The notes: generated by a model from the letters alone, not told the origin. A DNA stretch of 64,000 bases from a virus (IMGVR_UViG_3300031555_010392:1-64000), one strand, 5' to 3'; shown: positions 21,607 through 56,400, numbered from the stretch's first letter. Program-made: numbers and translations.

Positions 21607-21732
21607 ATAAACCTCCAATTGACAAATATGGTAAAATAAAAATTGGTACGGTGCTCCGCGATGGGAGAATGGGCCTTCATAGATCATCTTGGGTAGCTAC
21701 TGCCTTAGACGACTATGAAAGGAGTGATGCAT

Positions 21733-43466: not shown

Positions 43467-43826
43467 TTACGCTCCCTGCAATTCTCCTTCGATATAACCT
43501 TTCAGCAGCACACGCCCCGCGGCAAGACGAACGTCATCATCGTTCCAGACACCTTCCATATGAATAGAGGTGGTTTCCATAACATCGTCCACGATCTGAC
43601 CGATCAGGTCATCAGGAATGTGAGCGGCGTAGTCGCGACTGAAACAGGTGTTGAGATGCCAGCTGATGTGCTCTTTTACCTCAGAGCGGATGATTTCTTC
43701 CGGGCAGCGGTTAAACTGTGCTTTAGAATGACAGTGGGGGCAAACCATATCCAAATCATTGTCAACCTTGATCATGTCCACGGTGGATTTGGCGCCGCAT
43801 TTATCACAGGTAAACAGGTTAAACAT
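43467..43826 (-). CDS. hypothetical zinc-ribbon protein
   Basis: CDKCG...CPHCH; start re-called to MFNLFT with GGAGG RBS. Confidence 0.4.
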   Translation of the reverse strand: MFNLFTCDKCGAKSTVDMIKVDNDLDMVCPHCHSKAQFNRCPEEIIRSEVKEHISWHLNTCFSRDYAAHIPDDLIGQIVDDVMETTSIHMEGVWNDDDVRLAAGRVLLKGYIEGELQGA

Positions 43827-43858
43827 GGGATTCCTCCTTATCAAAATCGAAAGATCAA

Positions 43859-44200
43859 TTAAGAAGACGTGGTGAGATCACGGATGGAAATGTTGAAAAT
43901 ATCGAGAAAACGACTGGGAGCCATGCGGGCATCTGTGTCTTTATTGATCAGGTTCAAATGTCTGCCCATGATGCCGGTTCCATGCCTGTTTCTGGAGATA
44001 TACAGATGGTTGCGATACCAAGAAGGGCACAAACGATGCGTGGGGATGAAGGCGATCAAAGAATTGTCCGAGAAATAAAAGACGCCATATTTATTGCGGC
44101 ACGCCTTTGCTTTCATGCGTGCATTGTAAGTGCGACAGTTCGAATAATACCAGGTTTTCGACGGGGTACCACAAAGATCAACGACTTCACCAAAGGTCAT
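43859..44200 (-). CDS. hypothetical protein (113 aa)
   Basis: GGAGG RBS. Confidence 0.4.
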   Translation of the reverse strand: MTFGEVVDLCGTPSKTWYYSNCRTYNARMKAKACRNKYGVFYFSDNSLIAFIPTHRLCPSWYRNHLYISRNRHGTGIMGRHLNLINKDTDARMAPSRFLDIFNISIRDLTTSS

Positions 44201-44216
44201 GAAATGATTTCCTCCT

Positions 44217-44456
44217 TTACGACAATGCGGTCAGAAGCGGCTGATGATCCAGCTTTTTATACTTGGACATCATGCAAATCCCATGCTGATCCTTGTCACA
44301 GGCAAATGCCTTATCCTTGACGGGGCAAATGGAGCAGAGCATGACCGTTGCGCCACATTCAGGACAGGTGGTTTGACGGTGGTTGAGCGAGGTATCAAAG
44401 GAACCGTGGATATCCGCTTCACAGTGAGGACAGACCTCGTAGACAATTCTTCTCAT
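44217..44456 (-). CDS. hypothetical zinc-ribbon protein (CPHC...CPEC...CSIC)
   Basis: GGAGG RBS. Confidence 0.4.
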   Translation of the reverse strand: MRRIVYEVCPHCEADIHGSFDTSLNHRQTTCPECGATVMLCSICPVKDKAFACDKDQHGICMMSKYKKLDHQPLLTALS

Positions 44457-44475
44457 GATAATTCCTCCTTTTGTT

Positions 44476-44796
44476 TCATCTGTTGAGGTAATAGGGATTG
44501 GTGATCAAAAAGGAACCAGAGCGAACATTATTTGCAAAAAGTGTGGTGAGGTGAAAATGGTTCTGGATCGCCCGGCATTCCTCTTGCGTAGCGGGGGATG
44601 CCTGAAGAAGACTGTACCCAGAGAAATAAATATCACGATGAATGCATATCGATAATCGCTCATAGCGCGGCAGAAGCTGCTTTTCATAAAAAGAAGAGTG
44701 CTTCAAGTCTTCTCCATTCGCTATACCGGGGAGCACAATGCGGGATTTGGGTTCGTTCTTTATGTAATAGACCGTGAAGCATATGCCTTTTCTCAT
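44476..44796 (-). CDS. questionable ORF (106 aa)
   Basis: fills gap but no RBS; poor composition. Confidence 0.15.
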   Translation of the reverse strand: MRKGICFTVYYIKNEPKSRIVLPGIANGEDLKHSSFYEKQLLPRYERLSICIHRDIYFSGYSLLQASPATQEECRAIQNHFHLTTLFANNVRSGSFLITNPYYLNR

Positions 44797-44808
44797 ACGG
44801 CTGCTCCA

Positions 44809-45183
44809 TTAACGCTTCAGGTACCAAGGATTTTTGACGATGTGCCTATCCCGAGAAATGATTTTTCCAAACACATTTTCAATCGCTTCAATATGCTTTC
44901 CAATGTCCGGAAGAAGAGGACCCTCCACCCAACGACAACCGTTGACAGGATCAAGGACATACAGACGGCTTTGCATAGTGAGCGTCGCATAGTCCAAAAG
45001 ACCGGGAATCGCAAAGGCATTGGCGTTGACCAGTTCTGCAATATATGAACTATGCGCTTCAACACGATGATTTGTAACGATTTGCACATCGGGAAATTCA
45101 CTGATCGTAACCAAGGTGAAACCAACGCGCGGTTTGCCAGCGGATTTATACCACGCTTTGTAAGCGAGCTCTTTATCATTCAT
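44809..45183 (-). CDS. hypothetical protein (124 aa)
   Basis: AAGGAGAG RBS 6 nt before MNDKEL. Confidence 0.4.
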   Translation of the reverse strand: MNDKELAYKAWYKSAGKPRVGFTLVTISEFPDVQIVTNHRVEAHSSYIAELVNANAFAIPGLLDYATLTMQSRLYVLDPVNGCRWVEGPLLPDIGKHIEAIENVFGKIISRDRHIVKNPWYLKR

Positions 45184-45195
45184 ATACATCTCTCC

Positions 45196-45447
45196 TTAAG
45201 GATCCAAATAGGACAGGGTCTGTTCCAAATGGCGAACCCACTCTTCCTGATACCAACTTTTAGCTTCGTGCAAAGTGCAGCCACGGTAACGGCGGGGGCC
45301 GAGCTGGCCCATAATGAGCCAGCCCTTTCCGCCAGTGTTGATCTTGAACGCAGTGACGCCTTTGACCATTCCGCGATTCAAACGCCTTGCCTGTTTGCGG
45401 GAATGAGAGACCTTGCGCTTGAAACGAAGATTAAAGGGGCTTGTCAT
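45196..45447 (-). CDS. small basic protein (83 aa)
   Basis: AGAGGT RBS; start overlaps upstream stop. Confidence 0.35.
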   Translation of the reverse strand: MTSPFNLRFKRKVSHSRKQARRLNRGMVKGVTAFKINTGGKGWLIMGQLGPRRYRGCTLHEAKSWYQEEWVRHLEQTLSYLDP

Positions 45448-46531
45448 TGGTAACCTCTGCAAGCTTGAAGGAAGGATCCTCAGCATCGGCGTCTTCAGCT
45501 TCAGCTTCCTCGTCTTCTCCATAGACCGCATCCAGATCGACATATTCCATGCTCATGCGCTCCCAATTGAACTTGACAGGCATACCAGTGGCCGCGTTGT
45601 ACGCATCGCCGCCGATATACAGGGCACAATCCAGAGTGAAATCGTAGATATAAACGTCCATGTTTTCGTCGATCAAAAGGATGGCGCTGCTGGAATCGAT
45701 CATGGAGCCGTCCTCCAGAATGGCGTATTCCTCTTCATTCAGGAACATCATCGGAATGCGAACCGGGATGGAATTCTTTGCCTTGGACGCGGTGGGCTTG
45801 TTGGCGGAACTGGTGGAAGCAGGAGAGGTGAGATTGGTGCCGCCATAGGGATAAACGTCCCAATCGTCATCATCCCAGCCCGTATGCCATGCGCTGCCGG
45901 AACCGCCGTAATACTTGGAATACTTGTAATTGTAGCTGCGGTAGTCGTAACCGAGATAGCTGGAGTTGGAATACAGGAGACCATCATCCTCAATGAAATC
46001 ACCGATGGTATAGATGAAGCGATCTGCGGTGAGGAAAGCCATCTTGGAAGAAATGGCATTCTTGACCATGAGCATAAGATCCTTATTCTCATAGAACTTG
46101 GGAACGGCACGCTTGAGCGGCGCCAACTGAGACATGATGTATTCCATAGTATCATTGATATTCTTCTGGCGGGGCGTGATATCAATGATACCGTTGTGGG
46201 CGACGCCTACATCCGTGATGGTTTCCAGCTTCTGAAGCAGATGGAGGCTATCCGTGATGGGATAGGGATGCGTATTGGCCGGGATATTGCCGCCGGCAGT
46301 GCCAATGCGGAAGTGAAGGACCATGGCTTCCTTATCAACATCGATCTTCTTCCTGATGGCATCCAGTTCAGCGAACACGGAATCCACAGTCATGAGGCCC
46401 TTGACAATCTTGACCTTTCCATTGATGGTATACATAATGCCAGCGCCATCACGGTTGTGGTTGAACATACGGCGAATGGTGGAATCATCGGGGAGCTTGA
46501 TGCCAGCGGGCTTTGCACAAATGATACACAT
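45431..46531 (-). CDS. class-II (Ntn) glutamine amidotransferase-domain protein with acidic low-complexity C-terminal tail
   Basis: N-terminal Met-Cys nucleophile MCIICAKP, NHNRDGAGIM (R-x-D-x-x-G-I) and VGVAHNGIIDI (HNG) class-II GATase motifs; AAGGAGG RBS. Confidence 0.75.
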   Translation of the reverse strand: MCIICAKPAGIKLPDDSTIRRMFNHNRDGAGIMYTINGKVKIVKGLMTVDSVFAELDAIRKKIDVDKEAMVLHFRIGTAGGNIPANTHPYPITDSLHLLQKLETITDVGVAHNGIIDITPRQKNINDTMEYIMSQLAPLKRAVPKFYENKDLMLMVKNAISSKMAFLTADRFIYTIGDFIEDDGLLYSNSSYLGYDYRSYNYKYSKYYGGSGSAWHTGWDDDDWDVYPYGGTNLTSPASTSSANKPTASKAKNSIPVRIPMMFLNEEEYAILEDGSMIDSSSAILLIDENMDVYIYDFTLDCALYIGGDAYNAATGMPVKFNWERMSMEYVDLDAVYGEDEEAEAEDADAEDPSFKLAEVTNDKPL

Positions 46532-46594
46532 ATTAGGGGGTTCCTCCTTATATATCTGTTTTTGATGATTGATGTGATGGGTTAAAGGGAAGAA

Positions 46595-48475
46595 TCAACC
46601 GCGGCTTACCAATTCCAGAACATTCTTGCTCCAGGCATAGTTCTGGACTCTGGAAGAAGAATCGCAAGCATGGCGGAGACGATACATATAGTCCGTATCC
46701 ACATCGGTCCACGCATCCTCAATGGAATCGACAATAAACGTTTCGCCAGCAAACTGGAACATGTAGGAAGTCACTTCACCGCTCATGCTCTCAGCGAGAT
46801 TGGGAATAACGCGAACCACATCGCCGATCTTAAAGGTACTGCCAGATCCATGGAGAAGCTGATCGCCCTTGTCGTTCTGAATATCGCGTTCCTGCATGTA
46901 GGCAACGATCTCGGGATATTCGTTGTAAAGAGCGAAATCGTTCCAAGTGCATTCCAGCGCTTCCTTGACCGTATGGGTTTTGCAGTACTTGACAAGGTTA
47001 TCGACAAACTGAAGGGTGGCGATGAGCGTGCTGTACTTAAGGGTGCCACGGAAAAGACGGAACTCGATGGTGTTGCGGTTGGTGAGATTGAGAGCGAAGT
47101 AGCGGTCATCGTGAGAATAACAGCGGGAACGGGCGATCTTCTGGATGGTCTGCTGTTCAGAATCATCGGCGCTGACGCTGATATTCATCTTCTTGCACCA
47201 GCGGAGCTGGTTGTAATCGCGGCGGCTGAACTTGACCATGGTATCCCAGAAGCGTTCCATGATCAGAGCGATCTTGGCGATGGTAGCTTCCTTAGCATCG
47301 GGGGTGGAGCCAAGACAGGTGCGGTTGACATGGACATGCAGACCACAGGTGCCAGCCTTGTGAGAGGTGAACTTGTGCTCAAGAGAGGTTTCGCAGATCT
47401 TCTCCCACGGGAATTCCTTCATGTGGTAATTCAGGGTGCAGGGATGAGTGACGATCTCAAGGCCATCATCCAGACTGCCATCACACTTGGTGTAGAGAAG
47501 ATTTTCATTGCCGCGGACAATGTCCTTGGAACAGGCAGTCGCATCATCGCCGTGGTCAATTTCGTTTTCAACTCCCATGTAAACGAAATCCGTGCCATCA
47601 GTGAACGAATCATCAGAAGTGGAGTGGAAAATGGGAGCAGGCTTATAGGAATAATTGTGAATGCGGCCAGCGCGATCATCCCAGCAGGAAGAGCAGTAAT
47701 ATTCATCCTCGCCTTCATCGTAATAACAGTCATCTACATGGAGCACATTTCCGCACTCGTGGCAGCGGCGATAGGACTGTCCGCAATCATTGCAAAGGGT
47801 ATGGCCGTTATCATTGTTGAAACGGAGACGATCATAGCTGAAATACTCGCCGCACTCCTCGCACCTGGCATAATTACTCAAGCAGGAATCACAAACGGTG
47901 AAATCCGTATTCGTCCATCCATGCTGACCATGAACAAGGGAGCCTTCGCCGTTCAGAATGAAAGAACCGCAATCGTGACAGGTTTCAATGTTTTCATAGC
48001 ATTCGCTGCAGATCCTGGTGCCGGTCTTATCCATGTAGAAGTGGCGTCCGTCGTGATAAGCACCGCAGTTATCACAGAAGAAACCTTCGCACTCTACGTC
48101 CAGATCTTCATAGGAGCATTCACCGGAAACTTTCATGCTGACCAGACGACGATCAAAATCGCTGGCGGAATCATCGCATTCACCGACGATGGACTTGTTG
48201 AAATCGGTTTCGTAAGTCCATTCCCATTTGACATCGATTGCGGAATAGGAGCGCTTGAGGATCTCGCGGGTGAGTTCCAGAGCTTCGGAGAAATTGGTGT
48301 CAAAACTGTCGAACATCGGGACCAGCTTATCGAAAGGCTCCTCGCCTTCCTTGGCGACACGGGTGTACAGACCGCCATTCTCAACGCACTTATACACGAT
48401 GTAAGGCTTCATCTGCATGGTGGGATTGCGCTTGGTATAAGTGGTGGTGGCAACCTGATAGAAATGGTACGACAT
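46595..48475 (-). CDS. zinc-ribbon-repeat protein fused to a GCS2/amidoligase (glutamine-synthetase-like carboxylate-amine ligase) domain
   Basis: central block of at least six CxxC pairs (CDNCG, CSEC, CHDCG, CDSC, CEECG, CNDCG, CHECG, CSSC); C-terminal domain with VYMGVENEI...GLEIVTHP...CGLHVHVN signature of amidoligase/GCS2 enzymes. Confidence 0.7.
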   Translation of the reverse strand: MSYHFYQVATTTYTKRNPTMQMKPYIVYKCVENGGLYTRVAKEGEEPFDKLVPMFDSFDTNFSEALELTREILKRSYSAIDVKWEWTYETDFNKSIVGECDDSASDFDRRLVSMKVSGECSYEDLDVECEGFFCDNCGAYHDGRHFYMDKTGTRICSECYENIETCHDCGSFILNGEGSLVHGQHGWTNTDFTVCDSCLSNYARCEECGEYFSYDRLRFNNDNGHTLCNDCGQSYRRCHECGNVLHVDDCYYDEGEDEYYCSSCWDDRAGRIHNYSYKPAPIFHSTSDDSFTDGTDFVYMGVENEIDHGDDATACSKDIVRGNENLLYTKCDGSLDDGLEIVTHPCTLNYHMKEFPWEKICETSLEHKFTSHKAGTCGLHVHVNRTCLGSTPDAKEATIAKIALIMERFWDTMVKFSRRDYNQLRWCKKMNISVSADDSEQQTIQKIARSRCYSHDDRYFALNLTNRNTIEFRLFRGTLKYSTLIATLQFVDNLVKYCKTHTVKEALECTWNDFALYNEYPEIVAYMQERDIQNDKGDQLLHGSGSTFKIGDVVRVIPNLAESMSGEVTSYMFQFAGETFIVDSIEDAWTDVDTDYMYRLRHACDSSSRVQNYAWSKNVLELVSRG

Positions 48476-48497
48476 GTTACAGTTCCCCTTTCATTTG

Positions 48498-48534
48498 ACT
48501 TTATTAGTTATTTAATAAGATTGAAAAATGGGTA
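48498..48534 (-). promoter_or_regulatory. conserved AT-rich promoter-associated element (CCCATTTTTCAA-N11-AACTAATAAAG) upstream of amidoligase gene
   Basis: shares TTATTAAATAACTAATAAAG with copies at 60479-60510 and 53326-53347. Confidence 0.35.
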
Positions 48535-48545
48535 CAAAAAAGAGA

Positions 48546-49016
48546 CTATTCAAGATACGAGATCTGAACGACGGGGTCTTTGTTATCGATGGCTTTGTTG
48601 AGCTTAGGGGCGAGAGCATCCATAAAATCGAACATACGTTTGAACGCCGCTGTGGTAGTTGCATTAAACTCCATGTCAGAGATGATCTTTTCGATCACTT
48701 TGAAAAGCAGGAGCAAGGCCTTCACTTCATTGACCTTCAACTTTTGAAGAGCGCGTGGCTCTTTGCTCATCCTTGCGATCTTGGGAGCGAGAGTATCCGG
48801 TTTTTTGGGGGCGATATAGCTGGAGATGAGGCTGACCTTATAGGGATTGAACAATTCCACCTTGATGGTTCGTGTGGCACGCTCTGCCAATCGTCTGGAG
48901 GAGTCCTTGTAATAAGCGTATGCCTCTTCATAGGTGGGGAATTGTTCTTCCGAGGTGAAGAGCTTATCCTCACCTTTGATCTTCAAAGTGGTACTGCACC
49001 TGACGGAAAAACCCAT
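48546..49016 (-). CDS. hypothetical protein (156 aa)
   Basis: AAAGGAG RBS. Confidence 0.45.
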   Translation of the reverse strand: MGFSVRCSTTLKIKGEDKLFTSEEQFPTYEEAYAYYKDSSRRLAERATRTIKVELFNPYKVSLISSYIAPKKPDTLAPKIARMSKEPRALQKLKVNEVKALLLLFKVIEKIISDMEFNATTTAAFKRMFDFMDALAPKLNKAIDNKDPVVQISYLE

Positions 49017-49033
49017 GCTTTTGCTCCTTTCAT

Positions 49034-49543
49034 TTACATGATGTTAAAGAAACCTAACATTTCAGAATCGCGGAAGATATGGTCGATGGAGTATTTGTGA
49101 TTGTGGAGATTGAAGACGTAATCAGAAAAGTGGTCGTGTTCATGGAGGATATAAGAGAGTTCACCAGGAAGCAGCGGTTTTCTGCCAGTAATATCGCATG
49201 TTTTCCCAAGGAGAAGATCCTCTAACCGGTACACTTTGTAGGTGCTTTCCTGGAGTACCAGATCTAAGAACGTGTCAAAGTCTGCGGCGGGATCCAACCC
49301 GGGAGTGCCGAGTTTCCGCTTAAAGCAATTATAATAAACCTTGGAATGAGACTGCACACTTGCAAACTGCAAGGGCGCCATCCCCTTGGGCATATGATTC
49401 AGATAGAACCCCGCTTTGTGATGCTGAAGCATATAAATGATATCCCGGCCACAGCGCCATGTGGGATAATCGGTGAGGACATAGCGCTTTTCCAGAGTGA
49501 CGTCGTCCATTTCTTTTCTGAATCTGAAGATGACAAAGGCCAC
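49034..49543 (-). CDS. hypothetical protein (~170 aa), GTG start
   Basis: AAAGGAGA RBS 7 nt before GTG. Confidence 0.4.
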   Translation of the reverse strand: MAFVIFRFRKEMDDVTLEKRYVLTDYPTWRCGRDIIYMLQHHKAGFYLNHMPKGMAPLQFASVQSHSKVYYNCFKRKLGTPGLDPAADFDTFLDLVLQESTYKVYRLEDLLLGKTCDITGRKPLLPGELSYILHEHDHFSDYVFNLHNHKYSIDHIFRDSEMLGFFNIM

Positions 49544-49560
49544 TGATGGTTCTCCTTTCT

Positions 49561-49809
49561 TTAGTGGTTCCAGTAGATGGGAGTTTCCTCCCACCAATCC
49601 AGCTCATAAAGATGCTCCTCTCCGGCGATCTCAATGAAGGCCAGATTGTGAGTGATGGAATTGACCTGAACATGGTGCCGGGCATAATCAATACCAGTAT
49701 TGAACGCAAGCCAACTGGCAATAGCGCCGAACAGGAGCACAAACAGGGGATGCCTGAGATAATGGAGGATATCTGAGAAGGTGAGGATATAGGTAGGTTT
49801 GGAATGCAT
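49561..49809 (-). CDS. hypothetical membrane protein (82 aa)
   Basis: GGAGG RBS; hydrophobic core. Confidence 0.4.
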   Translation of the reverse strand: MHSKPTYILTFSDILHYLRHPLFVLLFGAIASWLAFNTGIDYARHHVQVNSITHNLAFIEIAGEEHLYELDWWEETPIYWNH

Positions 49810-49812
49810 GAT

Positions 49813-50154
49813 TTACCTCCTGTGGATCGGGAATGTAACTCTGTCCAACAAGGAAGTTCGTTCATAAAACGGGCCTCTTTTAGACAGGAGCTCAACACAA
49901 CGCACATTGAAAAGATCGCCATAGGTTTTCCAATATTGGAAGAGCGGCTCGATCAGTTCAAGCTTTGTTTTCTTGATAGATACGTAAGTACCGGAACAAT
50001 AGGTTATATAAAGCCAATAGATGGGCTCCGGCTCATGGAGGGGAAGGGGAGACCAGAGATAATTACCATAAAGATCGCTGGCATCATCGAGATAAACATT
50101 TTCAGCCCTTCTGCCACAGAAGGATCTTTCCGCAGCAGACGTCCAGATTGGCAT
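49813..50154 (-). CDS. hypothetical protein (~113 aa)
   Basis: start re-called to MPIWTS (GAGGTGA). Confidence 0.35.
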   Translation of the reverse strand: MPIWTSAAERSFCGRRAENVYLDDASDLYGNYLWSPLPLHEPEPIYWLYITYCSGTYVSIKKTKLELIEPLFQYWKTYGDLFNVRCVELLSKRGPFYERTSLLDRVTFPIHRR

Positions 50155-50167
50155 TTGATCACCTCGC

Positions 50168-50455
50168 TTAATGGAAATAGGCGAATTTCTCGTCGGCGTA
50201 TACACAGAAATCAAAGAGCCATTTTACTCGACGAGAATGAATTTCTTCTGCTGCTACACTGACCTCTTCGCACTTAAAGTATGGTCGATTCTGTTTGACC
50301 CATTTGACGAGCATAAGAATGTCGCTTTGAGTACGGTGATTGAAGACCAAAGTTTGGTTCCAGTGTGCTCCGCACTCAAACTTGATGACGGCTCTGTAGC
50401 TATACTTAGGAGATAAAAGAAGCTTGATATGATCAAAGATCTGATCAAAGTCCAA
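50168..50455 (-). CDS. hypothetical protein (95 aa), TTG start
   Basis: ORF in array. Confidence 0.35.
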   Translation of the reverse strand: MDFDQIFDHIKLLLSPKYSYRAVIKFECGAHWNQTLVFNHRTQSDILMLVKWVKQNRPYFKCEEVSVAAEEIHSRRVKWLFDFCVYADEKFAYFH

Positions 50456-50699
50456 CTTTATCCACCATCCCTTGCTTGGTTCTTTTTATGTTTTCTAACA
50501 GGATTTCAAGTGGAGAAACTGTTTTCCCCTGACTATTGATGAAAAAATGGTAGTTAGAATGAAAGTGCCGAGAGTAAGAGCTATACCAATGATTGAAAGC
50601 TACCATATCCTGAAAGGTGGGGAGAGGAATTGAAACGGTTCTTACCATAGGCCATACAATGACAGCCTTATACGGAGGAATGAAAACTGATTTGTTCAT
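50445..50699 (-). CDS. hypothetical protein (84 aa)
   Basis: ORF in array. Confidence 0.4.
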   Translation of the reverse strand: MNKSVFIPPYKAVIVWPMVRTVSIPLPTFQDMVAFNHWYSSYSRHFHSNYHFFINSQGKTVSPLEILLENIKRTKQGMVDKVGL

Positions 50700-50703
50700 G
50701 TGA

Positions 50704-51006
50704 TCACCAGTCCTTGTAAAGGCTACTGAAGTCTACGATGCGCGTGTCACTCCAATCTGCGATCCATTGGCCTGTTCGTGTGAAAAATGCCATGTGATTT
50801 ATATTGAACAGCATACCGTGATTCATAACCCATTCGATCAGCACTTTGGTATACTTAGGATCAGTGAAAGGAATGGTTATGCCTCCGACATAATTACCAT
50901 TTTTACCGACAAAGTAAAGCCTGCTTATAAAGCGCTCATTCGCGATATCGACGATTCTTTGCAGGACTCTTTCGAGCTTGCATTGCGCTGCCCAATCCCA
51001 TTCCAT
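50704..51006 (-). CDS. hypothetical protein (~100 aa)
   Basis: start re-called to MEWDWAA with AAGGAG RBS. Confidence 0.4.
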   Translation of the reverse strand: MEWDWAAQCKLERVLQRIVDIANERFISRLYFVGKNGNYVGGITIPFTDPKYTKVLIEWVMNHGMLFNINHMAFFTRTGQWIADWSDTRIVDFSSLYKDW

Positions 51007-51010
51007 AAGC

Positions 51011-51565
51011 TCACTCCTTTTTGCGTTCGTCGTGGAATTCCCAGATAGCGGGTTCGAGGATCCCATCAACAACACGATGGACGGAAAGAGAAATGCGAGA
51101 TATGTCTTCGACGGGAGCATACGAGGTGAGCTCCTGTTTCAGATGCCATTTACGCTTGATATCGTTAAATTTAAGCATGGCTTTCTCTTTTGTGGGGCAA
51201 TAAATCACTTCGCAAACAGAGTGTGGACAGTCGGGAAAGTGAGTATCGATGTATTCGCAATCCACAACGTATCTAATGTTCTGTTCCGACTCAACCACAT
51301 ATTTGCCATATGAAGCAAGAGCTTGCATCCAGAAGGTCACATCGGTTTCCTTGGGCAGGACAGGAGAGGGCAAGGCTCCGCATTTGAAGAGCCAAACGAC
51401 AGTGTGGTAAAGAACTTCCGGTGTGGCGTTTGCCAGTTCTTCAACGCCAATGGCCTTAACCAATTCATAAGCGTTAATGGTCCCATCCAGTTCATAACGA
51501 CTCAGAAAAAGCCTGATCGATTCCGGGTTAAGATAATGCCTTTCCTTGAACTTGGGGATATTCAT
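51011..51565 (-). CDS. hypothetical protein (184 aa)
   Basis: AAGGGAA RBS. Confidence 0.45.
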   Translation of the reverse strand: MNIPKFKERHYLNPESIRLFLSRYELDGTINAYELVKAIGVEELANATPEVLYHTVVWLFKCGALPSPVLPKETDVTFWMQALASYGKYVVESEQNIRYVVDCEYIDTHFPDCPHSVCEVIYCPTKEKAMLKFNDIKRKWHLKQELTSYAPVEDISRISLSVHRVVDGILEPAIWEFHDERKKE

Positions 51566-51656
51566 TGCATTCCCTTCTTTCTTTTGATTTGAGTGGATAA
51601 CGATTCATGCACTCATTGGGACGCTCTAAGCAAATCACTTAAAGCGCCCTGTGAAT

Positions 51657-51887
51657 TCATGAATTGGAGCTGTTTTCATCCTCCTTTGTGCGTTCCCATC
51701 CAACCCAGCCTGTGAAACCTTTTTGCTGGGTGAAACGGGCGCTGCTGAAGACTAAGTGGGTTCCGGGATGGCGTGCCTGCCACATCTGCTGCATGAAATT
51801 CTGTTCCTGTTTGGAGAAATTCCTGACAAACTGAGGATTGCGCACCTCAAGGCACATAACGAGATTGCGCACAGCTACGGGGTTCAA
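51657..51887 (-). CDS. hypothetical protein (76 aa)
   Basis: GGAGG RBS. Confidence 0.4.
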   Translation of the reverse strand: MNPVAVRNLVMCLEVRNPQFVRNFSKQEQNFMQQMWQARHPGTHLVFSSARFTQQKGFTGWVGWERTKEDENSSNS

Positions 51888-52114
51888 ACTGCATTCCTCC
51901 TTTGATTAGCTGCTTGGTTCATCTTATGCATGTTGAGCAGTCGGATCAGATCATTGGGGGTAAGGGTGTATTCCTCCTCGCATTCATAGATAGGATGTTT
52001 CCTGTGGAATTTACCGCTGGGCACCATTTTGTTGATGGTGATGGTACAGGTGCTCATTTCTTGTTTGAGCTGAAGAACTCCGACATCTGGAGCTTTGATG
52101 TTGATGAGGCCCAT
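51884..52114 (-). CDS. hypothetical protein (76 aa)
   Basis: GGAGG RBS. Confidence 0.4.
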   Translation of the reverse strand: MGLINIKAPDVGVLQLKQEMSTCTITINKMVPSGKFHRKHPIYECEEEYTLTPNDLIRLLNMHKMNQAANQRRNAV

Positions 52115-52128
52115 AGATAAGCCTCCCT

Positions 52129-52512
52129 TTACTTGATTTCAGAAAGGAGCCTGTCCAGATCATCCTTGGTGCCGCCAAGCTCCAGTGTGGCAAGAATGCG
52201 GTTGATCTCTCTTCCTTTGCGAATGGAGAGTTCATTCTTAGCATCGCACAGTTTATCCCAAATGTTGAGAGGATTGCAGGGAGGACAACAAGAAAGGTTG
52301 GAGCGTATCGCGCGATTCCCAACGAGACCATAACGCTCATTGAAATCCTTTAGTTTTTCATTGAATTCATCATCCATGCGTTTCAGTTCAGCTTTTGTTT
52401 CTTCGCGAAGTCTGGAGTATTCTTCTTCAAGCTTGGGAACTTCGGAAGCTGCGGGCAACCGAGTCCCAACCTCGTCGGAAATGTATTCTCGAATGGCTTT
52501 GGAAATTTTCAT
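52129..52512 (-). CDS. hypothetical coiled-coil protein (127 aa)
   Basis: AAAGGAGA RBS. Confidence 0.45.
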   Translation of the reverse strand: MKISKAIREYISDEVGTRLPAASEVPKLEEEYSRLREETKAELKRMDDEFNEKLKDFNERYGLVGNRAIRSNLSCCPPCNPLNIWDKLCDAKNELSIRKGREINRILATLELGGTKDDLDRLLSEIK

Positions 52513-52527
52513 TCAGCATTTCTCCTT

Positions 52528-53061
52528 TCAGTGAGTAGCATTGACAGCGGAAACAGGGAAAAGATCCATGGGATCAGGGACAGTGGTGGTATGTACAGGC
52601 TTGGAAGAATGGAGAATTCCCGCTTTGATCAGGAAGCGTGCGGCTTTGCGATAGGTTTCCTTATTCTGCTTGATCTCATCATTGAACTGCTGGAGGTTGG
52701 CCAGAGATTCCCGATACTGACGCTTGGCCTCAGCAACCTGAGCTTTGGCGGCTGCGGTTTCCTGTTCAAGCTGTTTGGCCTGACGGATGATGGCTGCCTG
52801 CTTGGCATAGATTTCCTGCGCTTCCTTGATGCGCTTTTCCCGCGTGATGGAGATACGAACCTGTTCCTTCTCCTTCTGGGCCTTGAAACGAGCTTCACGA
52901 TACTTTGCGGTCATTTCCGGCGGCTGCTTACCGATGTGATTGACCACGGTCTGATAGTTGCAGCCGAGAGCTTTGGCGATATCAGAATTCTGATAACCAT
53001 ATTCACGAAGGAGTTCCATCTGGGACTTGACAGACTTGGTGACGCGGACACGCTTAGACAT
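52528..53061 (-). CDS. DNA-binding protein, N-terminal HTH + coiled coil (candidate regulator)
   Basis: NSDIAKALGCNYQTVVNHIGK HTH; AAAAGGAG RBS; promoter-like element upstream. Confidence 0.5.
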   Translation of the reverse strand: MSKRVRVTKSVKSQMELLREYGYQNSDIAKALGCNYQTVVNHIGKQPPEMTAKYREARFKAQKEKEQVRISITREKRIKEAQEIYAKQAAIIRQAKQLEQETAAAKAQVAEAKRQYRESLANLQQFNDEIKQNKETYRKAARFLIKAGILHSSKPVHTTTVPDPMDLFPVSAVNATH

Positions 53062-53076
53062 ATTGCATTCTCCTTT

Positions 53077-53116
53077 TCAATATTAGTTGTTTTGTAAGGC
53101 TTGAAAATGGGCATAA
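53077..53116 (-). promoter_or_regulatory. conserved promoter-associated element (CCCATTTTCAA-N12-AACTAATA) upstream of HTH gene
   Basis: related to element at 48498-48534. Confidence 0.35.
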
Positions 53117-53124
53117 AAATTCCA

Positions 53125-53310
53125 TCAACTGAGGGCGAACAAGATGAATTCGTTCAGTTCACGGTACTCTTGGGTATACAGTTTCCTGCATTTTTCCCGG
53201 TTGATCTCGTCATAGTGACGAAGACCGATATCGCCGTAGACATTCCATCCACCTTTGTAAAGATTACGTTCCATCTTCCAGATGATGTTCTTCTTGCCAT
53301 GGGCGGTCAT
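53125..53310 (-). CDS. hypothetical protein (61 aa)
   Basis: AAAGGAGGAG RBS. Confidence 0.4.
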   Translation of the reverse strand: MTAHGKKNIIWKMERNLYKGGWNVYGDIGLRHYDEINREKCRKLYTQEYRELNEFILFALS

Positions 53311-53416
53311 TGCGTCTCCTCCTTTCTTATAACATAACTAATAAACGTTGTCAACAATAATTTTTATTTTACGCTGACAACTCCCATAATGGGCGGATGG
53401 ACTGGGTAGGAATGGA

Positions 53417-53629
53417 TCAGAACACTCCGAGGGGCATGAGGTTGAAGAAAGAGGGTTCCTCCTCAAAGGATTCTTCGGGATAGGCGATGCCAGACTGGAA
53501 CAGTTTGCTGGCGGTGAAAGACGAGCTGCCTTCGTGGTCATAAATGTCGCTTTCGCGATCAAGGTTGCGGATGAAATCGGAATCGGTACGGACGGTCATG
53601 GACTTGCGGATGGAATCGAGAATAGACAT
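53417..53629 (-). CDS. hypothetical protein (70 aa)
   Basis: GGAGG RBS. Confidence 0.4.
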   Translation of the reverse strand: MSILDSIRKSMTVRTDSDFIRNLDRESDIYDHEGSSSFTASKLFQSGIAYPEESFEEEPSFFNLMPLGVF

Positions 53630-53786
53630 AGGGGTACCTCCTTCAGATGATTTATTTGTGCAGTCTTGTGCACTTAAAAAGACCTACTGTGGATGCAATA
53701 GGCCTTGCTTAAATGCGCATGGTTGTGGTAGGATAGAAGGGTAAGGGGAAATGGGTGACAAGCCCATCGCCCCTGTGATACGCGGA

Positions 53787-53903
53787 TCAGCTGGTCAGGG
53801 AATCGTTGTATGTCTCATGGTACTCGTCAATCGTCGGGAAACGCTGGTAGGTACCATCAGGCATGAAACCCATGTAGCAGGAATCCGTATAGTATCCCTT
53901 CAT
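53787..53903 (-). CDS. hypothetical small protein (38 aa)
   Basis: AGGAGGTGA RBS 6 nt before MKGYYTD. Confidence 0.35.
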   Translation of the reverse strand: MKGYYTDSCYMGFMPDGTYQRFPTIDEYHETYNDSLTS

Positions 53904-54097
53904 GATATCACCTCCTGTGGGTATGGGTGGGGTAACGTGGAGGGATTTTTGATTTAGGCGTGGGTAGTCGGCAATCACCTCCTTTTGGGCAGAGTTGTGG
54001 TATGGTTGGGTGTAGCTATATGCGTACACTCATTGGGAGGCACTGGGTAGAGTGCCTCCTATGAATGTGCGGACTTGGGGTAGGGTAGATCGGTTGG

Positions 54098-54829
54098 TTA
54101 CTTGGCAGCCTTCTTGGTGTTGGCGGTGCGGAGCTTCCACTGTTCACCGGTGACCTGGCTGTGGATGATATCCATCAGAAGGGGGGCGATGCCATCAGCA
54201 GAGACGCCATCCCATTCAAGGCGGGCTTTGGCTTTGGCAAGAGCCATAGCGAGAGCTTTGACATCGTTGTCACGGGCGCGGAGTCCTTCGATGCCGCACT
54301 TGGACAGAACTTCCTTGAACAGGCAATTACGGGCTTCGTTGATGCACTTTTCACGAGTAGCCTTGGGCAGGCCGTTGGATTCGGCGAGAATCACGTCGTT
54401 GATTTTGGGGGCGAGAGCCTTCAGGCCGTCGATGATATAGCCCGCTTCTTCGATAGGAGTGCCGACCTTTTCAGCATGACGGAAGAAGTCCAACATGTTG
54501 ATACGGATACCGTTGCGGACAGCGAACTCAAGAGTGACAGCTTTAGCCATACGCTTGGCATAGCCGGTAGAATGCTCCTGTATTTTGCACAGTTCAACAA
54601 GAGGAGCATCAGTTGCAAGGAAACCATTGTACAGATCGATCAGGGCAGATTCGTTGTAGGCGTCTTTGGCGGCGTTCATGGCAGACATGGCGGCTTTCGA
54701 GTCCTTGGACAAGACAGCTTCCCCGGCGGCTTCAGCAAGCAGAACTTTGTTCATGGCAGAGATAGCCTTGCGGAAATTGTTGCGGAGTTCATCGGTGGAC
54801 AGGATGGTGGTGTTGGTGGTGTTAGACAT
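54098..54829 (-). CDS. hypothetical alpha-helical protein (243 aa), first gene of the minus-strand early block
   Basis: AAAGAGGT RBS; adjacent to divergent control region. Confidence 0.5.
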   Translation of the reverse strand: MSNTTNTTILSTDELRNNFRKAISAMNKVLLAEAAGEAVLSKDSKAAMSAMNAAKDAYNESALIDLYNGFLATDAPLVELCKIQEHSTGYAKRMAKAVTLEFAVRNGIRINMLDFFRHAEKVGTPIEEAGYIIDGLKALAPKINDVILAESNGLPKATREKCINEARNCLFKEVLSKCGIEGLRARDNDVKALAMALAKAKARLEWDGVSADGIAPLLMDIIHSQVTGEQWKLRTANTKKAAK

Positions 54830-55632
54830 AGATGCATACCTCTTTCGTTAATTTAGTAGCGTGATAGTCAATCAGCGCTCTATTGGGGGCACAGCTATTG
54901 CGTGGGTAGATAGACTGTGCCCTGGGTAGAACGTTGAACCTTGTTTGATGCATACCCTGCTTGGACAGGAATCATGTGGACATGATTATCCTGCGGCACG
55001 TACTCGTCCCTATTCGTCGTGGGTCGAACCCGCACTATACACAGAGATGTAGCCCATTGATAGACAGATAGAGGGCATGTGTATAGCTCGACTTAGCCCG
55101 GGCAGGTAGAGGCATTTGTATGTGGCAGGCCTTGCCTTTGACGTCTTACATTTGGCCGTGCTGATGCCGTGCCCGCCGGATTCGCTAACCTCCGCCAACT
55201 CATTGCATGCCCTTTCGCGTGTCAAGCGCTATCGACACAGGCGAGTCATCTTCATTGATGGTTATTCTTCCCCTGCCGTTTTAACGCTGTCTAACCTTTA
55301 TTCGTCATGCACCCTGTCGGCATTGCTTCACGCCGTACTTTTCGCGTCAAAGGTGGATTCTGTTGTCAAGGTTCGCACGCTCCGGCACTTGCGCGGGTAG
55401 TGGTTAGACCACTACCAACTGATAAGTTAGACCTATCATGAACACGTTCGCGCTTTCGCGTGTGGGGTTTCCTGTGGTGTCTTTCCCTCCTCCTGTGGGG
55501 CTTGTCGTGTGGGGTTATTGGGTACGGTCACATAGTATCAGCTTACATTTTTAGAATCACCCGAATTTCAAAAAAGCGCTGAAAACCTTACTACGCCCCA
55601 AATTTTAAAAATTAAAACATCAAAAATAGCGT

Positions 55633-55676
55633 AAAAAAATATCACGGAATCCGTCAAAAACCGTGATATTTTTTTT
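55633..55676. terminator. bidirectional rho-independent terminator (A7-hairpin-T8)
   Basis: perfect 15-bp inverted repeat AAAAAAATATCACGG / CCGTGATATTTTTTT separated by 13 nt. Confidence 0.5.
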
Positions 55677-55779
55677 GATCCATGGGGGACGGGTTTTCAT
55701 AGGAAAATCAAGGCTTCCAGGGCCCACCGCCGCCAAGTTCGACCTTCTCATCTCTAGGCCTCCAACCGGCCTTTTCCGA

Positions 55780-56400
55780 CTATTTTCTCCTAAATTTCCG
55801 CCCTCCTACCTCACCACCCCTCGTTCCATTCCACCTCCATTTTTCTTCGGCAAAATCTTCAATCAATCTTCAACCCTAATCCCATCTCCACCCATCCCCT
55901 CATCACCCTCACAATCGCCCCACAACCCCATTCTCACCCCTTCACACACCATACCCTTATCCACCCCAACCCCCAACTGCACGCCCCTTAAAACCCCTTT
56001 ACAGGCCCAAATAAGCCCATAATAGTTATTTAATAACCAACCACCACTCTTAACCCTTTCAATCCCACACCAAACCTAACCCCTCATAAATCGCTCTATA
56101 ACCCCTTAATCAACCTCTCTCCCAACCTACCCTAAGCCCACTAACTCCACCCCAAACAAATGCCTAAAACACCCCTTAAAAGTCGAAATAACCCCATACA
56201 TTTCCCACCACTTAATCCGTCAAAAATCCAAACAAAATAAGCACTTCCACCCCGAAAGGACTCGAAAGTGCTTTAATTTATCTATAAAACTCCACTTAAA
56301 CTACCAATATCTTATTCACCAACCCAATCTGTCCACATTCACCATTCATGCCATTAGTAAAATCAGCTCCCAAAAACCCTCACATTTATTTTTCTAAAAC
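55780..56400 (+). repeat. ~620-nt non-coding region almost devoid of G on the plus strand (C/A/T-rich), with scattered CCCCTTAA(A) and CCCTAA repeats
   Basis: about 25 G in 620 nt; ACCCCTTAA x3, CCCTAA x3, CCACCCCAA x2; the only ORF here (55663..56022) is a Pro-rich composition artefact. Confidence 0.5.

Follow-up and report, generated by a model that had tools for sequence, protein, structure and literature searches.

Known pairs of ligases and glutaminase-type hydrolases

The gene pair analysed here is of a type that has already been predicted computationally in other phages. In the phiEco32/LUZ24/RIO-1-type cassette, genes for Amidoligase_2 and GAT-II (class-II glutamine amidotransferase) proteins occur together with a COOH-NH2 ligase, a RimK-like ATP-grasp protein and a gamma-glutamyl cyclotransferase; work by Iyer and colleagues in 2009 and by Hardies and colleagues in 2013 is said to have predicted that this cassette modifies peptidoglycan or proteins. 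The annotation of LUZ24 gives gp18 as the ligase, gp19 as the GAT and gp22 as the cyclotransferase (GGCT). An association of ligase and GAT with gamma-glutamyl cyclotransferase has been reported in C. clostridioforme prophages (PMC11318856) and likewise for the RIO-1/phiEco32-type cassette (PMC5498523). In the literature up to 2026, we found neither this cassette nor the present module experimentally characterised, and the same is true for every member of the ligase family; as the earlier note on this DNA had maintained, a defined substrate has not been reported for such modules in the searchable literature of that period.

Related combinations are known from cellular organisms. In mycobacterial ergothioneine biosynthesis, the GS-fold (GCS2) ligase EgtA and the standalone class-II Ntn hydrolase EgtC are encoded in one operon, and EgtC removes the gamma-glutamyl group that was installed by EgtA. 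PafA and Dop, which share a GS-like ligase fold, write and erase a gamma-glutamyl isopeptide, with amide hydrolysis as the step that prepares the precursor. Finally, MurT/GatD (PMC3267633) is a two-gene operon of an ATP-dependent ligase and a glutaminase that amidates a macromolecular precursor, lipid II; these enzymes are a Mur ligase and a GATase with a class-I triad, hence both folds differ from those of the module described below.

Gene organisation of the locus

The present locus belongs to a large phage of gut Clostridia and represents the phiEco32/LUZ24-type cassette in a minimal form with zinc ribbons. It was found in a window of 64,000 nucleotides, i.e. the whole stretch of viral DNA that was analysed, and comprises the following features:

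46595-48475, minus strand: ligase gene (gene 1) for a 626-aa zinc-ribbon-fused amidoligase, from the ORF list; identical to public protein P0001, with PF12224 and PHROG 16683 matches
46532-46594, minus strand: intergenic spacer of 63 nt, from reading the sequence; AAGGAGG ribosome-binding site of the GAT gene at 46543-46549
45431-46531, minus strand: GAT gene (gene 2), from the ORF list; encodes a 366-aa hydrolase of the class-II (Ntn) glutamine-amidotransferase type whose C-terminal domain is tethered
45196-45447, minus strand: small basic ORF of 83 aa with a 17-nt overlap with the GAT stop; candidate clade-specific third gene whose membership in the module is doubtful

Both genes are located on the minus strand, the ligase gene first (48475 to 46595) and the GAT gene downstream of it (46531 to 45431). 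The earlier note had claimed, naming no strand, two ORFs of these sizes and positions, in shared orientation and 63 nt apart, and all of this was borne out. The ligase and GAT genes are real and not chance ORFs. Database searches returned 3,449 homologs of the ligase (E down to 1e-147) and 789 of the GAT (E down to 1e-180), and a public protein identical to the GAT (P0121) is encoded on a 137-kb contig. A strong GGAGG ribosome-binding site had been ascribed to each gene; this holds for the GAT gene, where AAGGAGG sits 11 nt ahead of the ATG, but not for the ligase gene, which has AAAGGGGAA in its place. In a consensus scan, the minus strand showed neither promoter nor terminator signals between the two genes, and no match in the region exceeded the chance level. 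Only two other loci (L001 and L002) have an ORF at the same position as the 83-aa ORF, with 31% identity; the remaining 100+ loci lack it. On the plus strand, the same DNA contains long antisense shadow ORFs of 390 and 643 aa.

The arrangement resembles LUZ24, where the same two Pfam-level enzyme types are found with the ligase directly upstream of GAT-II (gp18, then gp19), and as in the phiEco32/LUZ24/RIO-1 cassette the genes are phage-borne and situated in early or accessory regions. However, the module consists of two genes only: scans of the neighbours and of the larger ORFs in the window gave no COOH-NH2 ligase (PF14395), RimK-like ATP-grasp protein or GGCT, and tblastn together with a motif scan detected no gamma-glutamylamine cyclotransferase (GGACT) in the window. 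Furthermore, the hosts are gut Clostridia, whereas the phiEco32/LUZ24 cassette is known from Proteobacteria. The phage may be temperate, because the window encodes an integrase.

The ligase

The following regions can be distinguished in the 626-aa protein:

48092-48475, minus strand: residues 1-128, variable N-terminal region, poorly modelled (pLDDT 31-63), conserved in the closest relatives only
47672-48091, minus strand: residues 129-268, four tandem zinc ribbons with eight CxxC pairs, repeat form C-x2-C-G ... C-x2-C-x6, pLDDT 88-96
47627-47653, minus strand: residues 275-283, linker motif Y-S-Y-K-P-x-P-x-F connecting the zinc ribbons to the catalytic domain
46871-47620, minus strand: residues 286-535, Amidoligase_2 catalytic domain of predicted glutamine-synthetase-like fold (PF12224, invariant residues, model, Foldseek)
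46598-46843, minus strand: residues 545-626, small beta-rich accessory domain with GD-V-V motif (secondary structure; pLDDT 70-92)

Sequence profiles and structure prediction provide solid grounds to regard this protein as a carboxylate-amine ligase of GS fold, which is predicted to be ATP-dependent. Pfam Amidoligase_2 (PF12224) matches residues 286-494 with 42.2 bits, above the curated gathering score of 22 (E 1.1e-10), PHROG 2443 and 7469, both named 'amidoligase enzyme', match as well, and the motifs VYMGVENEI, GLEIVTHP and CGLHVHVN, on which the GS-like identity had originally been proposed, are all present. In an alignment of 119 homologs, E303, E305, D307, E340, H380, H382, R418, R419, N463, E471 and R473 are invariant; as acidic, His and Arg residues, all but N463 are candidates for metal, ATP and acyl-phosphate chemistry. 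The AF2 model shows a GS-like fold with pLDDT 90-98 over the catalytic domain; Foldseek matched it to GS-III (7u6o, E 9.5e-5), YbdK (1tt4, E 4.6e-4, target-normalised TM-score 0.41), Dop (E 3e-3 for 4b0r, up to 4e-2) and PafA (0.09), the similarity to Dop and PafA being weak. The proposed identity is thus supported, while the label 'GCS2-type' needs correction. It is appropriate for the common fold superfamily, but the ligase is not a member of the GCS2/YbdK family, because it reaches only 12.5 bits on TIGR02050 (cutoff 176) and has no match to Pfam GCS2 (PF04107) at E<=1. Moreover, the amidoligase domain, previously described as C-terminal, is central (~286-535) and followed by a beta domain of ~85 aa.

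The CxxC pairs lie at residues 134, 156, 166, 195, 205, 228, 238 and 261, consistent with the at least six pairs counted before. Among 119 diverse homologs, including minimal forms of ~400 aa, their Cys columns show at least 90% conservation, up to invariance. Hence, the architecture, which had appeared unusual, is the norm of its family, which counts over 3,000 members: the zinc-ribbon array is conserved in at least 90% of these homologs. Known domains such as zf-dskA_traR, Zn_ribbon_8, DZR and LIM-like gave weak, sub-threshold matches only to this region. LUZ24 gp18, unlike the present ligase, is devoid of the N-terminal zinc ribbons. In the linker motif, positions Y275, Y277, K278, P279 and P281 reach a conservation of at least 90%. 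The flanking regions are more divergent: residues 1-128 align with P0002-P0005 only and have no Pfam match, and the 545-626 region differs from homolog to homolog. It possibly adopts an SH3-like fold, as homolog P0069 has SH3_12 at this position (34 bits, cutoff 26), but the window copy of the domain has no Pfam match.

The glutaminase-type partner

The 366-aa GAT protein is composed of four parts:

45938-46531, minus strand: residues 1-198, Ntn glutaminase core with Cys2 nucleophile, R75, N113-G114 and D127
45782-45937, minus strand: residues 199-250, disordered linker rich in Tyr, Trp, Asp and Ser, pLDDT <50, including GWDDDDWDVYPY
45524-45769, minus strand: residues 255-336, conserved all-beta C-terminal domain of eight strands, pLDDT 92-97, specific to this GAT lineage
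45434-45523, minus strand: residues 337-366, acidic tail (D+E = 41%), in close relatives only

The MCIICAKP start and the RDGAGI and HNGII motifs, on which the class-II assignment had been based, are all present. M1-C2 is invariant in 83/83 homologs, so that the nucleophile Cys2 is kept throughout, and a Met-Cys start is also common to other GAT partner lineages (MCALFG, MCRVLLG, MCMLCV, MCGLVG). An hhalign comparison (E 1.6e-4) aligned R75 with R73 and N113-G114 with N98-G99 of GlmS, all of them invariant; D127 (motif DTMEY) is invariant too and was likened to GlmS D123 (SETDTE) by motif resemblance, outside the hhalign-aligned stretch. The predicted glutaminase catalytic set is fully conserved. 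The core is modelled as an Ntn alpha-beta-beta-alpha sandwich nearest to GAT-II enzymes, with GlmS as top structural match. Profile searches gave a mixed result: the window GAT stays below the gathering score of Pfam GATase_4 (15.7 bits, cutoff 23), but about 15 of the 120 listed homologs have a precomputed PF13230 match. Taken together, the gene 2 product is solidly predicted to be a class-II glutaminase-type amidohydrolase of the Cys-Ntn kind.

The rest of the protein had been summarised as an acidic, low-complexity tail of ~150 aa. Actually, it consists of the disordered linker, a beta domain of ~80 aa and an acidic end of only ~30 aa, the latter being absent or variable in most homologs. 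In 83 GAT homologs, the linker contains 13.5% Y and 5.7% W, compared to 3.2% and 0.6% in the core. Resembling stretches were found in LUZ24 gp19, where the acidic-aromatic stretch also follows the GAT core, as well as in Marvin gp106 and MW202733. The C-terminal beta domain, by which the GAT differs from that of the phiEco32/LUZ24 cassette, is conserved with the pattern LMWLD..YV...DG...L.DE.G.VY.YD. It has no Pfam match, and a profile search among 1.84 billion representatives returned 167 matches, namely proteins with the same GAT domain, apparent fragments thereof and spurious repeat matches.

Conservation of the pair and comparison with cellular systems

Ligase and GAT form an obligate, conserved pair, and the claim of a two-gene module is supported. 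In the IMG/VR sample, all 66 assessable zinc-ribbon-ligase loci (66/66) are accompanied by a GAT-II gene in the same orientation, almost always as the next gene, and among bacterial-genome loci with enough upstream DNA the ligase is directly upstream of the GAT in every one. The two genes are apparently co-transcribed. Only ligase and GAT recur as neighbours; a third conserved gene with an ORF of at least 50 aa was not found in 27 loci. Some copies of the module are located at the edges of integrated elements, adjoining recombinases. Several loci carry two or three ligase paralogs beside one GAT (L024, L034, L035, L047, L071, L073). In L071, the same gene array includes a GGACT/AIG2 gamma-glutamylamine cyclotransferase (82.5 bits), and in L103 a GGACT-like ORF, similar to the L071 protein by tblastn (E 4e-6), is located ~2.4 kb upstream of the ligase.

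The module shares with EgtA/EgtC the combination of a GS-fold ligase and a standalone Ntn hydrolase. However, a profile search against the PDB detected no sequence similarity to EgtA/EgtC, the ligase belongs to Amidoligase_2 and not to GCS2, the intermediate enzymes EgtB, EgtD and EgtE are absent, and the Egt enzymes have neither zinc ribbons nor accessory domains. The likeness to PafA/Dop is one of fold and concept, but the eraser of the Pup system has the GS fold, whereas here it would be an Ntn hydrolase. Moreover, a gene for a Pup-like tag (small protein with C-terminal Gln or Glu) is not conserved beside the module among ORFs of at least 50 aa in 27 loci.

Proposed function and alternatives

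We tentatively favour a mechanism in which the ligase recruits a target and forms a gamma-glutamyl-type amide on it, and this amide is cleaved or edited by the Ntn partner. The ligase would use ATP to activate a gamma-glutamyl-type carboxylate via an acyl-phosphate intermediate and join it to a target amine, resulting in a gamma-glutamyl amide. The zinc-ribbon array and the accessory domains would recruit the target, for which a macromolecule or a cell-envelope precursor is the most likely candidate. The Ntn partner, which seems to retain the residues for binding a gamma-glutamyl group at its free alpha-amino-acid end, would act on that same bond type, as do EgtC, NMG synthase and, functionally, Dop.

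To our knowledge, all characterised GS-fold ligases (GS, GshA/EgtA, PuuA, GmaS, PafA) activate the gamma-carboxyl of glutamate. In EgtA/EgtC, GmaS/MgsA and PuuA/PuuD, such a ligase is genomically paired with a GATase-like hydrolase by which the gamma-glutamyl amide is cleaved at a later stage. Gamma-glutamyl chemistry is further supported by the co-occurrence of GGACT in L071, a GGACT-like ORF in L103 and GGCT in LUZ24 and by the published cassettes, and a macromolecular target by the zinc-ribbon array, which is conserved in contrast to the variable SH3-like and other accessory domains. The loci with multiple ligase paralogs and one GAT are compatible with stepwise amide-bond building. Nevertheless, an obligate operon of just one writer gene and one eraser gene seems futile unless the hydrolase processes the precursor or edits the product, a conserved intermediate enzyme is absent, GGACT is rare (about 2/108 fetched loci), and the equation of D127 with GlmS D123 depends on motif resemblance. 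The zinc ribbons could also be structural or mediate subunit contact rather than recruit a target, and LUZ24 gp18 does without them.

Strict 1:1 adjacency is, furthermore, a hallmark of heteromeric glutamine amidotransferases, and this leads to the main rival, which we consider somewhat less likely than the favoured mechanism. Here, the Ntn subunit would hydrolyse glutamine, and the released ammonia would go to a target carboxylate that the ligase has activated with ATP. A carboxamide would result, for example Gln or iso-Gln from Glu in a protein or a peptidoglycan precursor. Functionally, the nearest parallels are MurT/GatD, with its lipid II amidation by a ligase and a glutaminase, and AsnB/LtsA-type cell-wall amidation. 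Such an amidotransferase would avoid a futile cycle and would fit the immediate adjacency and apparent co-transcription, the completely conserved glutaminase catalytic set, the structural match of the GAT to GlmS, and the matches of other GAT partner lineages to the AsnB/PurF-type Pfam models GATase_6 and GATase_7. Ammonia is the nucleophile of glutamine synthetase itself, and the tethered GAT C-terminal domain could serve as a docking element. However, we know of no GS-fold enzyme that is supplied with ammonia by a GATase, ligase-GAT fusion proteins were not found among the top 120 matches of either family, and a disordered tether of 45-60 residues is poorly suited to a sealed ammonia channel. 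Moreover, the GGACT co-occurrence would be left unexplained, and in several loci a single GAT serves two or three ligase paralogs.

It is less probable still, and in our opinion unlikely, that the pair acts as auxiliary metabolic enzymes. These would make and break a small gamma-glutamyl compound (glutamine, a glutathione-like peptide or a gamma-glutamyl-polyamine, for instance) in order to divert the nitrogen or thiol metabolism of the infected host. The nearest solved folds are YbdK/GCS2 and GS, and the same phage carries the metabolic accessory genes PnuC and NMNAT. Several genome papers label the genes as auxiliary metabolic genes (PMC10945688; PMC10580990), but these claims are founded on annotation only. 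A conserved array of four zinc ribbons together with exchangeable accessory domains, SH3-like or other, would be atypical of small-molecule enzymes, and an unrestrained synthetase and hydrolase would waste ATP.

Nucleic-acid modification, in which the zinc ribbons would bind DNA or RNA and the pair equip a base or tRNA with an amide or amino-acid adduct, similar to phage Gat-QueC 7-deazaguanine pathways or thymidine hypermodification, is very improbable: zinc ribbons are often nucleic-acid binders (weak matches include zf-dskA_traR and RNA-binding zinc-ribbon proteins), Gat-QueC offers a phage precedent of GAT-II fused to an ATP-using enzyme, and RNA-repair-like genes occur elsewhere in the window, but every zinc-ribbon match is sub-threshold, the scanned window ORFs match no known DNA-modification family (hydroxymethylase, DpdA/QueC, DNA-kinase or transferase-type), no hypermodification gene is conserved beside the module in more than 100 loci, and the module is also found at integrated-element edges. 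No finding of this analysis points to the DNA-base hypermodification suggested in the earlier note.

Under the favoured gamma-glutamyl mechanism, the net outcome while infection proceeds would be that a component of the host or the phage carries a gamma-glutamyl-type modification, either transiently or in a controlled manner. If true, this modification may serve host takeover, cell-wall alteration, superinfection exclusion or counter-defence.

The gene pair

Both genes are encoded on the minus strand and are separated by 63 nt, as the earlier note had described for two co-oriented ORFs; it stated no strand, and the upstream position belongs to the ligase.

48475..46595, minus strand: zinc-ribbon amidoligase (ligase), 626 aa, upstream gene of the pair
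46531..45431, minus strand: class-II glutamine amidotransferase-type protein (GAT), 366 aa, downstream gene of the pair

All motifs quoted before (MCIICAKP, RDGAGI, HNGII, VYMGVENEI, GLEIVTHP and CGLHVHVN) were found in the translations. The GGAGG ribosome-binding site assigned to each gene could be located for GAT (AAGGAGG), but the ligase gene has AAAGGGGAA instead. Because identical copies of both proteins exist in public metagenome collections, one of them on a 137-kb contig, and because the families comprise 3,449 (ligase) and 789 (GAT) members at E<=1e-3, we regard both as real genes and not as chance ORFs.

Two antisense shadow ORFs of 390 aa (45413-46585, plus strand) and 643 aa (46670-48601, plus strand) cover both genes, and a naive longest-ORF gene caller chooses them over the real ones. 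A scan for promoters and terminators gave no signal between the ligase and GAT genes and nothing exceeding chance. Furthermore, megablast of the window from 44 to 50 kb against GenBank phages returned no match, and neither protein was matched by the PADLOC defence-system models. The end of the GAT gene, stop codon included, shares 17 nt with a small basic ORF of 83 aa (45196-45447, minus strand). A counterpart at the same position (31% identity) is restricted to L001 and L002, two of the collected loci, so that this ORF may be an addition particular to one clade.

Domains and fold of the ligase

The ligase scores 42 bits with Pfam Amidoligase_2 (cutoff 22), a profile check that the earlier note had proposed, and it matches PHROG 16683 (unknown function, E 5e-60) together with two PHROGs named 'amidoligase enzyme'. 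The label GCS2-type is valid in the sense of fold but not of family, because the score with the YbdK/GCS2 model is only 12.5 bits (cutoff 176). The AlphaFold2 (AF2) model, calculated from an alignment of 119 homologs, matches enzymes of the glutamine synthetase (GS) fold; models lacking a GS-like fold had been named in the earlier note as a refutation.

Table. AF2 confidence and Foldseek matches of the ligase
Catalytic domain: pLDDT 90-98
Zinc ribbons: pLDDT 88-96
First 128 residues: pLDDT below about 60
Foldseek vs PDB, glutamine synthetase type III (7u6o): E 9.5e-5
Foldseek vs PDB, YbdK (1tt4): E 4.6e-4
Foldseek vs PDB, depupylase Dop: E 3e-3
Foldseek vs PDB, Pup ligase PafA: E 0.09

No solved structure nearer to the ligase was found in the PDB by fold or by sequence profile; the profile gave weak LIM/PHD-like matches at the zinc region (best E 0.007), which we treated as non-significant. 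The amidoligase domain, previously placed at the C-terminus, is actually central (residues 286-535) and is followed by a small beta domain. Ten residues, E303, E305, D307, E340, H380, H382, R418, R419, E471 and R473, are invariant among the 119 homologs (32-45% identity) and are of the type that an enzyme handling metal, ATP and an acyl phosphate would be expected to have.

The zinc-ribbon pairs are present as reported, with the number corrected from at least six CxxC pairs to eight, which make up four tandem ribbons. In the 119 homologs, the cysteines of all four ribbons show a conservation of 90% or more, up to full invariance, and they are kept even in minimal homologs of ~400 aa, which consist of ribbons and ligase alone. 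Since conservation extends to these minimal forms, the zinc-ribbon fusion is the defining core of a large ligase subfamily and not a one-off, and the architecture can no longer be called unusual. A conserved linker, Y-x-Y-K-P-x-P-x-F, connects the ribbons with the catalytic domain. The variable parts are the N-terminal region and the small C-terminal domains; in one homolog, the C-terminal position is occupied by a Pfam-significant SH3_12 domain. A paper on the 'amidoligase-like' CfmP of Klebsiella was set aside as irrelevant, as it deals with an ATP-grasp enzyme.

GAT core and C-terminal half

In Pfam, the 366-aa GAT matches only GATase_4 and stays below threshold (15.7 bits, cutoff 23), so that support for a class-II assignment comes from other comparisons. 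Invariant in 83 homologs are M1-C2, D28-G-A-G31, H73, R75, N86, H88-P89, H112-N113-G114 and D127; the lack of Cys2 conservation that had been named beforehand as a possible refutation is thus not seen. Alignment with the glutaminase domain of E. coli GlmS by hhalign gave E 1.6e-4 (GlmS sequence entered by hand), with R75 opposite R73 and N113-G114 opposite the oxyanion pair N98-G99. The core (residues 1-198) is modelled by AF2 with pLDDT above 90 and is matched in Foldseek by GlmS/GFAT (1e-5) and the Ntn hydrolase EgtC (4e-4). These lines from sequence and model agree in predicting a class-II Ntn glutaminase-type protein. Against the PDB, the GAT profile found nothing at E<=1, and the single core sequence gave only chance flagellin matches.

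What had been described as a 150-aa acidic low-complexity tail comprises three different parts:

Residues 199-250: linker, disordered and indel-rich
Residues 255-336: beta domain of eight strands, conserved, pLDDT 92-97
Residues 337-366: acidic tail, in close relatives only

Compared to the core, the linker is enriched in Tyr (13.5% vs 3.2%) and Trp (5.7% vs 0.6%), and also in Asp and Ser. A search of 1.84 billion representatives with the beta-domain profile found 167 proteins, mainly GAT proteins of the same lineage and apparent fragments; in a small number of short proteins (e.g. the database proteins P0245, P0253 and P0260), no GAT core sequence could be recognised. Because nearly every match belongs to this GAT lineage or is an apparent fragment, the beta domain is lineage-specific. 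The 'VYLYD' repeat proteins that also matched were discarded as spurious.

The disordered Trp/Tyr/Asp/Ser-rich stretch just past the glutaminase core (window 45782-45937, minus strand) is common to very distant phage GATs, namely LUZ24 gp19, Marvin gp106, the phage record MW202733 and the loci L071 and L106; examples are GWDDDDWDVYPY, WWSDDDDY, VSDYDDYSRS and GWDGEEDDD. A strict acidic-aromatic motif was found in 48 of 120 homologs, compared to 16 ± 4 in shuffles. A looser regular expression was unusable, because it also matches the first strand of the beta domain (MWLDDxDY). The stretch could serve as a docking or substrate-mimic motif.

Pairing of ligase and GAT

We searched bacterial genomes with the GAT family and IMG/VR with the ligase family, from which 79 loci were kept. 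In every bacterial locus with enough upstream DNA, the ligase is located directly upstream of GAT on the same strand; the hosts are gut/anaerobe Clostridia MAGs (Oscillospiraceae, Christensenellaceae, Acutalibacteraceae).

Table. IMG/VR ligase loci (79)
43/79: window-type GAT adjoining
19/79: second, divergent GAT-II lineage directly downstream (GATase_6 50.5 bits, cutoff 27)
4/79: other divergent GAT-II proteins, Pfam thresholds passed
8/79: contig ends too early, not assessable
2/79: ligase gene truncated
3/79: ligase without zinc ribbons, GAT absent

Because all assessable loci with a zinc-ribbon ligase (66/66) have a GAT-II, almost always as the next gene, ligase and GAT form an obligate two-gene module. 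The sole intact exception to the pairing are L096-L098, three IMG/VR loci with a 373-aa ligase lacking zinc ribbons, a DUF1653 protein before it and no GAT within 4 kb. An all-vs-all comparison of same-strand ORFs of at least 50 aa from 27 loci revealed no third conserved gene, and a 543-aa ORF past GAT in L003-L005 was rejected as a module gene, being clade-specific and without Pfam match.

In several loci, two or three ligase paralogs share one GAT. For example, an Anaeroplasmataceae MAG (L024, 18-6926) has three tandem ligase paralogs followed by a single GAT, and locus L071 (488-5146) has the order gamma-glutamylamine cyclotransferase (GGACT), ligase, GAT-II, ligase. Many module loci are situated at the borders of integrated elements, next to genes for serine or tyrosine recombinases. 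Phages and integrated elements of human-gut Clostridia often carry members of the ligase family, which comprises more than 3,400 clusters at 90% identity and has at least 388 IMG/VR matches.

Genomic context

The window comes from a large phage genome, whose genes in this stretch include those for a DNA polymerase, a primase, RecD-like and DnaB-like helicases and an ATP-dependent DNA ligase, as well as for Sak4, an exonuclease and an HNH endonuclease. Other genes are:

19772-21687, minus strand: PnuC-like NMN transporter (PHROG 1880, E 2e-45) and NadR/NMNAT-like adenylyltransferase (PHROG 3462, E 1e-65), genes overlapping
23565-24479, minus strand: SPFH/Band 7 protein (PF01145, 86.6 bits)
27592-28392, minus strand: nucleotidyltransferase (phrog_388)
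31484-32047, minus strand: HAD_SAK_2 protein (PF18143, 87 bits)
56559-57473, plus strand: tyrosine integrase

The PnuC and NMNAT pair looks like phage NAD+ salvage and could counter NAD-depleting defences. HAD_SAK_2 denotes the HAD domain of the RNA-repair proteins called 'Swiss Army Knife', and together with the nucleotidyltransferase it may have an RNA-repair function.

The neighbours of the module are small ORFs of unknown function; several of them (at 43467-43844 and 44217-44456, minus strand) carry paired CxxC zinc-ribbon motifs with sub-threshold matches to Zn_ribbon_8 and HypF-finger. The G+C content of the block around the module (44000-56000) is 0.47-0.51 compared to about 0.42-0.44 elsewhere in the window, and the block ends at a strand switch close to the integrase gene. 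The G+C rise, the strand switch and the nearby tyrosine integrase suggest that the block is an accessory region and that the phage may be temperate. Among the window ORFs scanned there was no second ligase, GGACT or DNA-hypermodification gene.

Relation to known phage cassettes

A phage amidoligase/GAT-II cassette was reportedly predicted computationally by Iyer et al. in 2009. Such genes have been annotated in phages since then under the labels 'auxiliary metabolic', 'cell-wall modification' and 'defence', and a seven-gene 'peptidoglycan modification cassette' was later described in phiEco32-, LUZ24- and RIO-1-like podoviruses. In agreement with the earlier note, the literature searched gave no substrate or phenotype for the pair; all functional statements on the cassette there are hypotheses, and a paper from 2023 states that the functions have yet to be explored.

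The phiEco32/LUZ24/RIO-1 cassette is the closest known system and shares with the module an Amidoligase_2 gene directly followed by GAT-II. The cassette genes beyond these two are missing from the window's module, which also differs in its four-zinc-ribbon array, the C-terminal domain of GAT and the host range. The same gene order is found in Pseudomonas phage LUZ24 (gp18, without zinc ribbons, then gp19), mycobacteriophage Marvin (gp105, with about two ribbons, then gp106), an OM43 phage and a freshwater podovirus (three or four ribbons). The gene pair itself is already known and will not surprise a specialist, and the minimal two-gene zinc-ribbon version is a variant of it.

Possible mechanism

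The analysis shows which two kinds of enzyme are encoded, how they are built and that they are paired; from this, we infer how the module acts. We tentatively favour a scheme, which we consider quite possible though short of probable, in which both enzymes have the same bond as their site of action. With its zinc ribbons and accessory domains, the ligase would recruit a target and form a gamma-glutamyl-type amide on it, and the Ntn partner would cleave, edit or prepare this bond. Several arguments led us to this preference. To our knowledge, all characterised GS-fold ligases (GS, GshA/EgtA, PuuA, GmaS, PafA) activate the gamma-carboxyl of glutamate. Class-II GAT domains are gamma-glutamyl-amide hydrolases, and GAT has kept the residues predicted to hold the substrate by its free alpha-amino-acid end. 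Among characterised operons, EgtA/EgtC, GmaS/NMG synthase and PuuA/PuuD each join a GS-fold ligase to a GATase-like hydrolase for removal of the gamma-glutamyl group, and conjugation systems commonly co-encode a writer and an eraser or processor, e.g. Dop/PafA. Moreover, GGACT cleaves gamma-glutamyl-amine bonds only. It is part of the L071 array, and in locus L103 the ligase is preceded, at a distance of about 2.4 kb, by a GGACT-like ORF. The association also occurs in LUZ24, in prophages of C. clostridioforme (PMC11318856) and in cassettes of the RIO-1/phiEco32 type (PMC5498523).

The main rival, a somewhat unlikely one in our view, is a heteromeric glutamine-dependent amidotransferase modelled on MurT/GatD, in which ammonia from GAT amidates an ATP-activated carboxylate. 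The adjacency, which is strictly 1:1, and an intact glutaminase site agree well with it, and it involves no futile cycle. However, we know of no GS-fold enzyme that receives ammonia from a GATase, ligase-GAT fusions were not seen among the best 120 matches of either family, and the long GAT tether, predicted to be disordered, would suit a sealed channel poorly. Small-molecule 'auxiliary metabolism' is very unlikely. Nucleic-acid modification is most improbable, as the DNA-base hypermodification suggested before finds no supporting gene among the window ORFs scanned.

Returning to the same-bond scheme, the module might represent a new type of reversible protein tagging, comparable to pupylation/depupylation but with a mono-gamma-glutamyl mark, that serves host takeover or counter-defence; we consider this clearly unlikely. 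A particular protein of host or phage would then be bound by the four-ribbon array and swappable SH3-like domains and receive a gamma-glutamyl group from the ligase at a lysine or other amine, and the tethered Ntn hydrolase would take the mark off again or proof-read it; the users would be phages and integrated elements of gut Clostridia.

The present analysis defines a minimal, self-sufficient two-gene version with obligate pairing, in which C2, R75 and N113 of GAT and E303, E305 and R473 of the ligase are the predicted catalytic residues, and the zinc-ribbon array, the acidic-aromatic linker and the GAT C-terminal domain probably set the target. Being minimal, obligately paired and very abundant in gut phages, this version represents a good handle on the substrate. 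Identification of the substrate would settle a 15-year-old prediction and could reveal either a novel modification that is reversible or a novel way of amidating the cell envelope.
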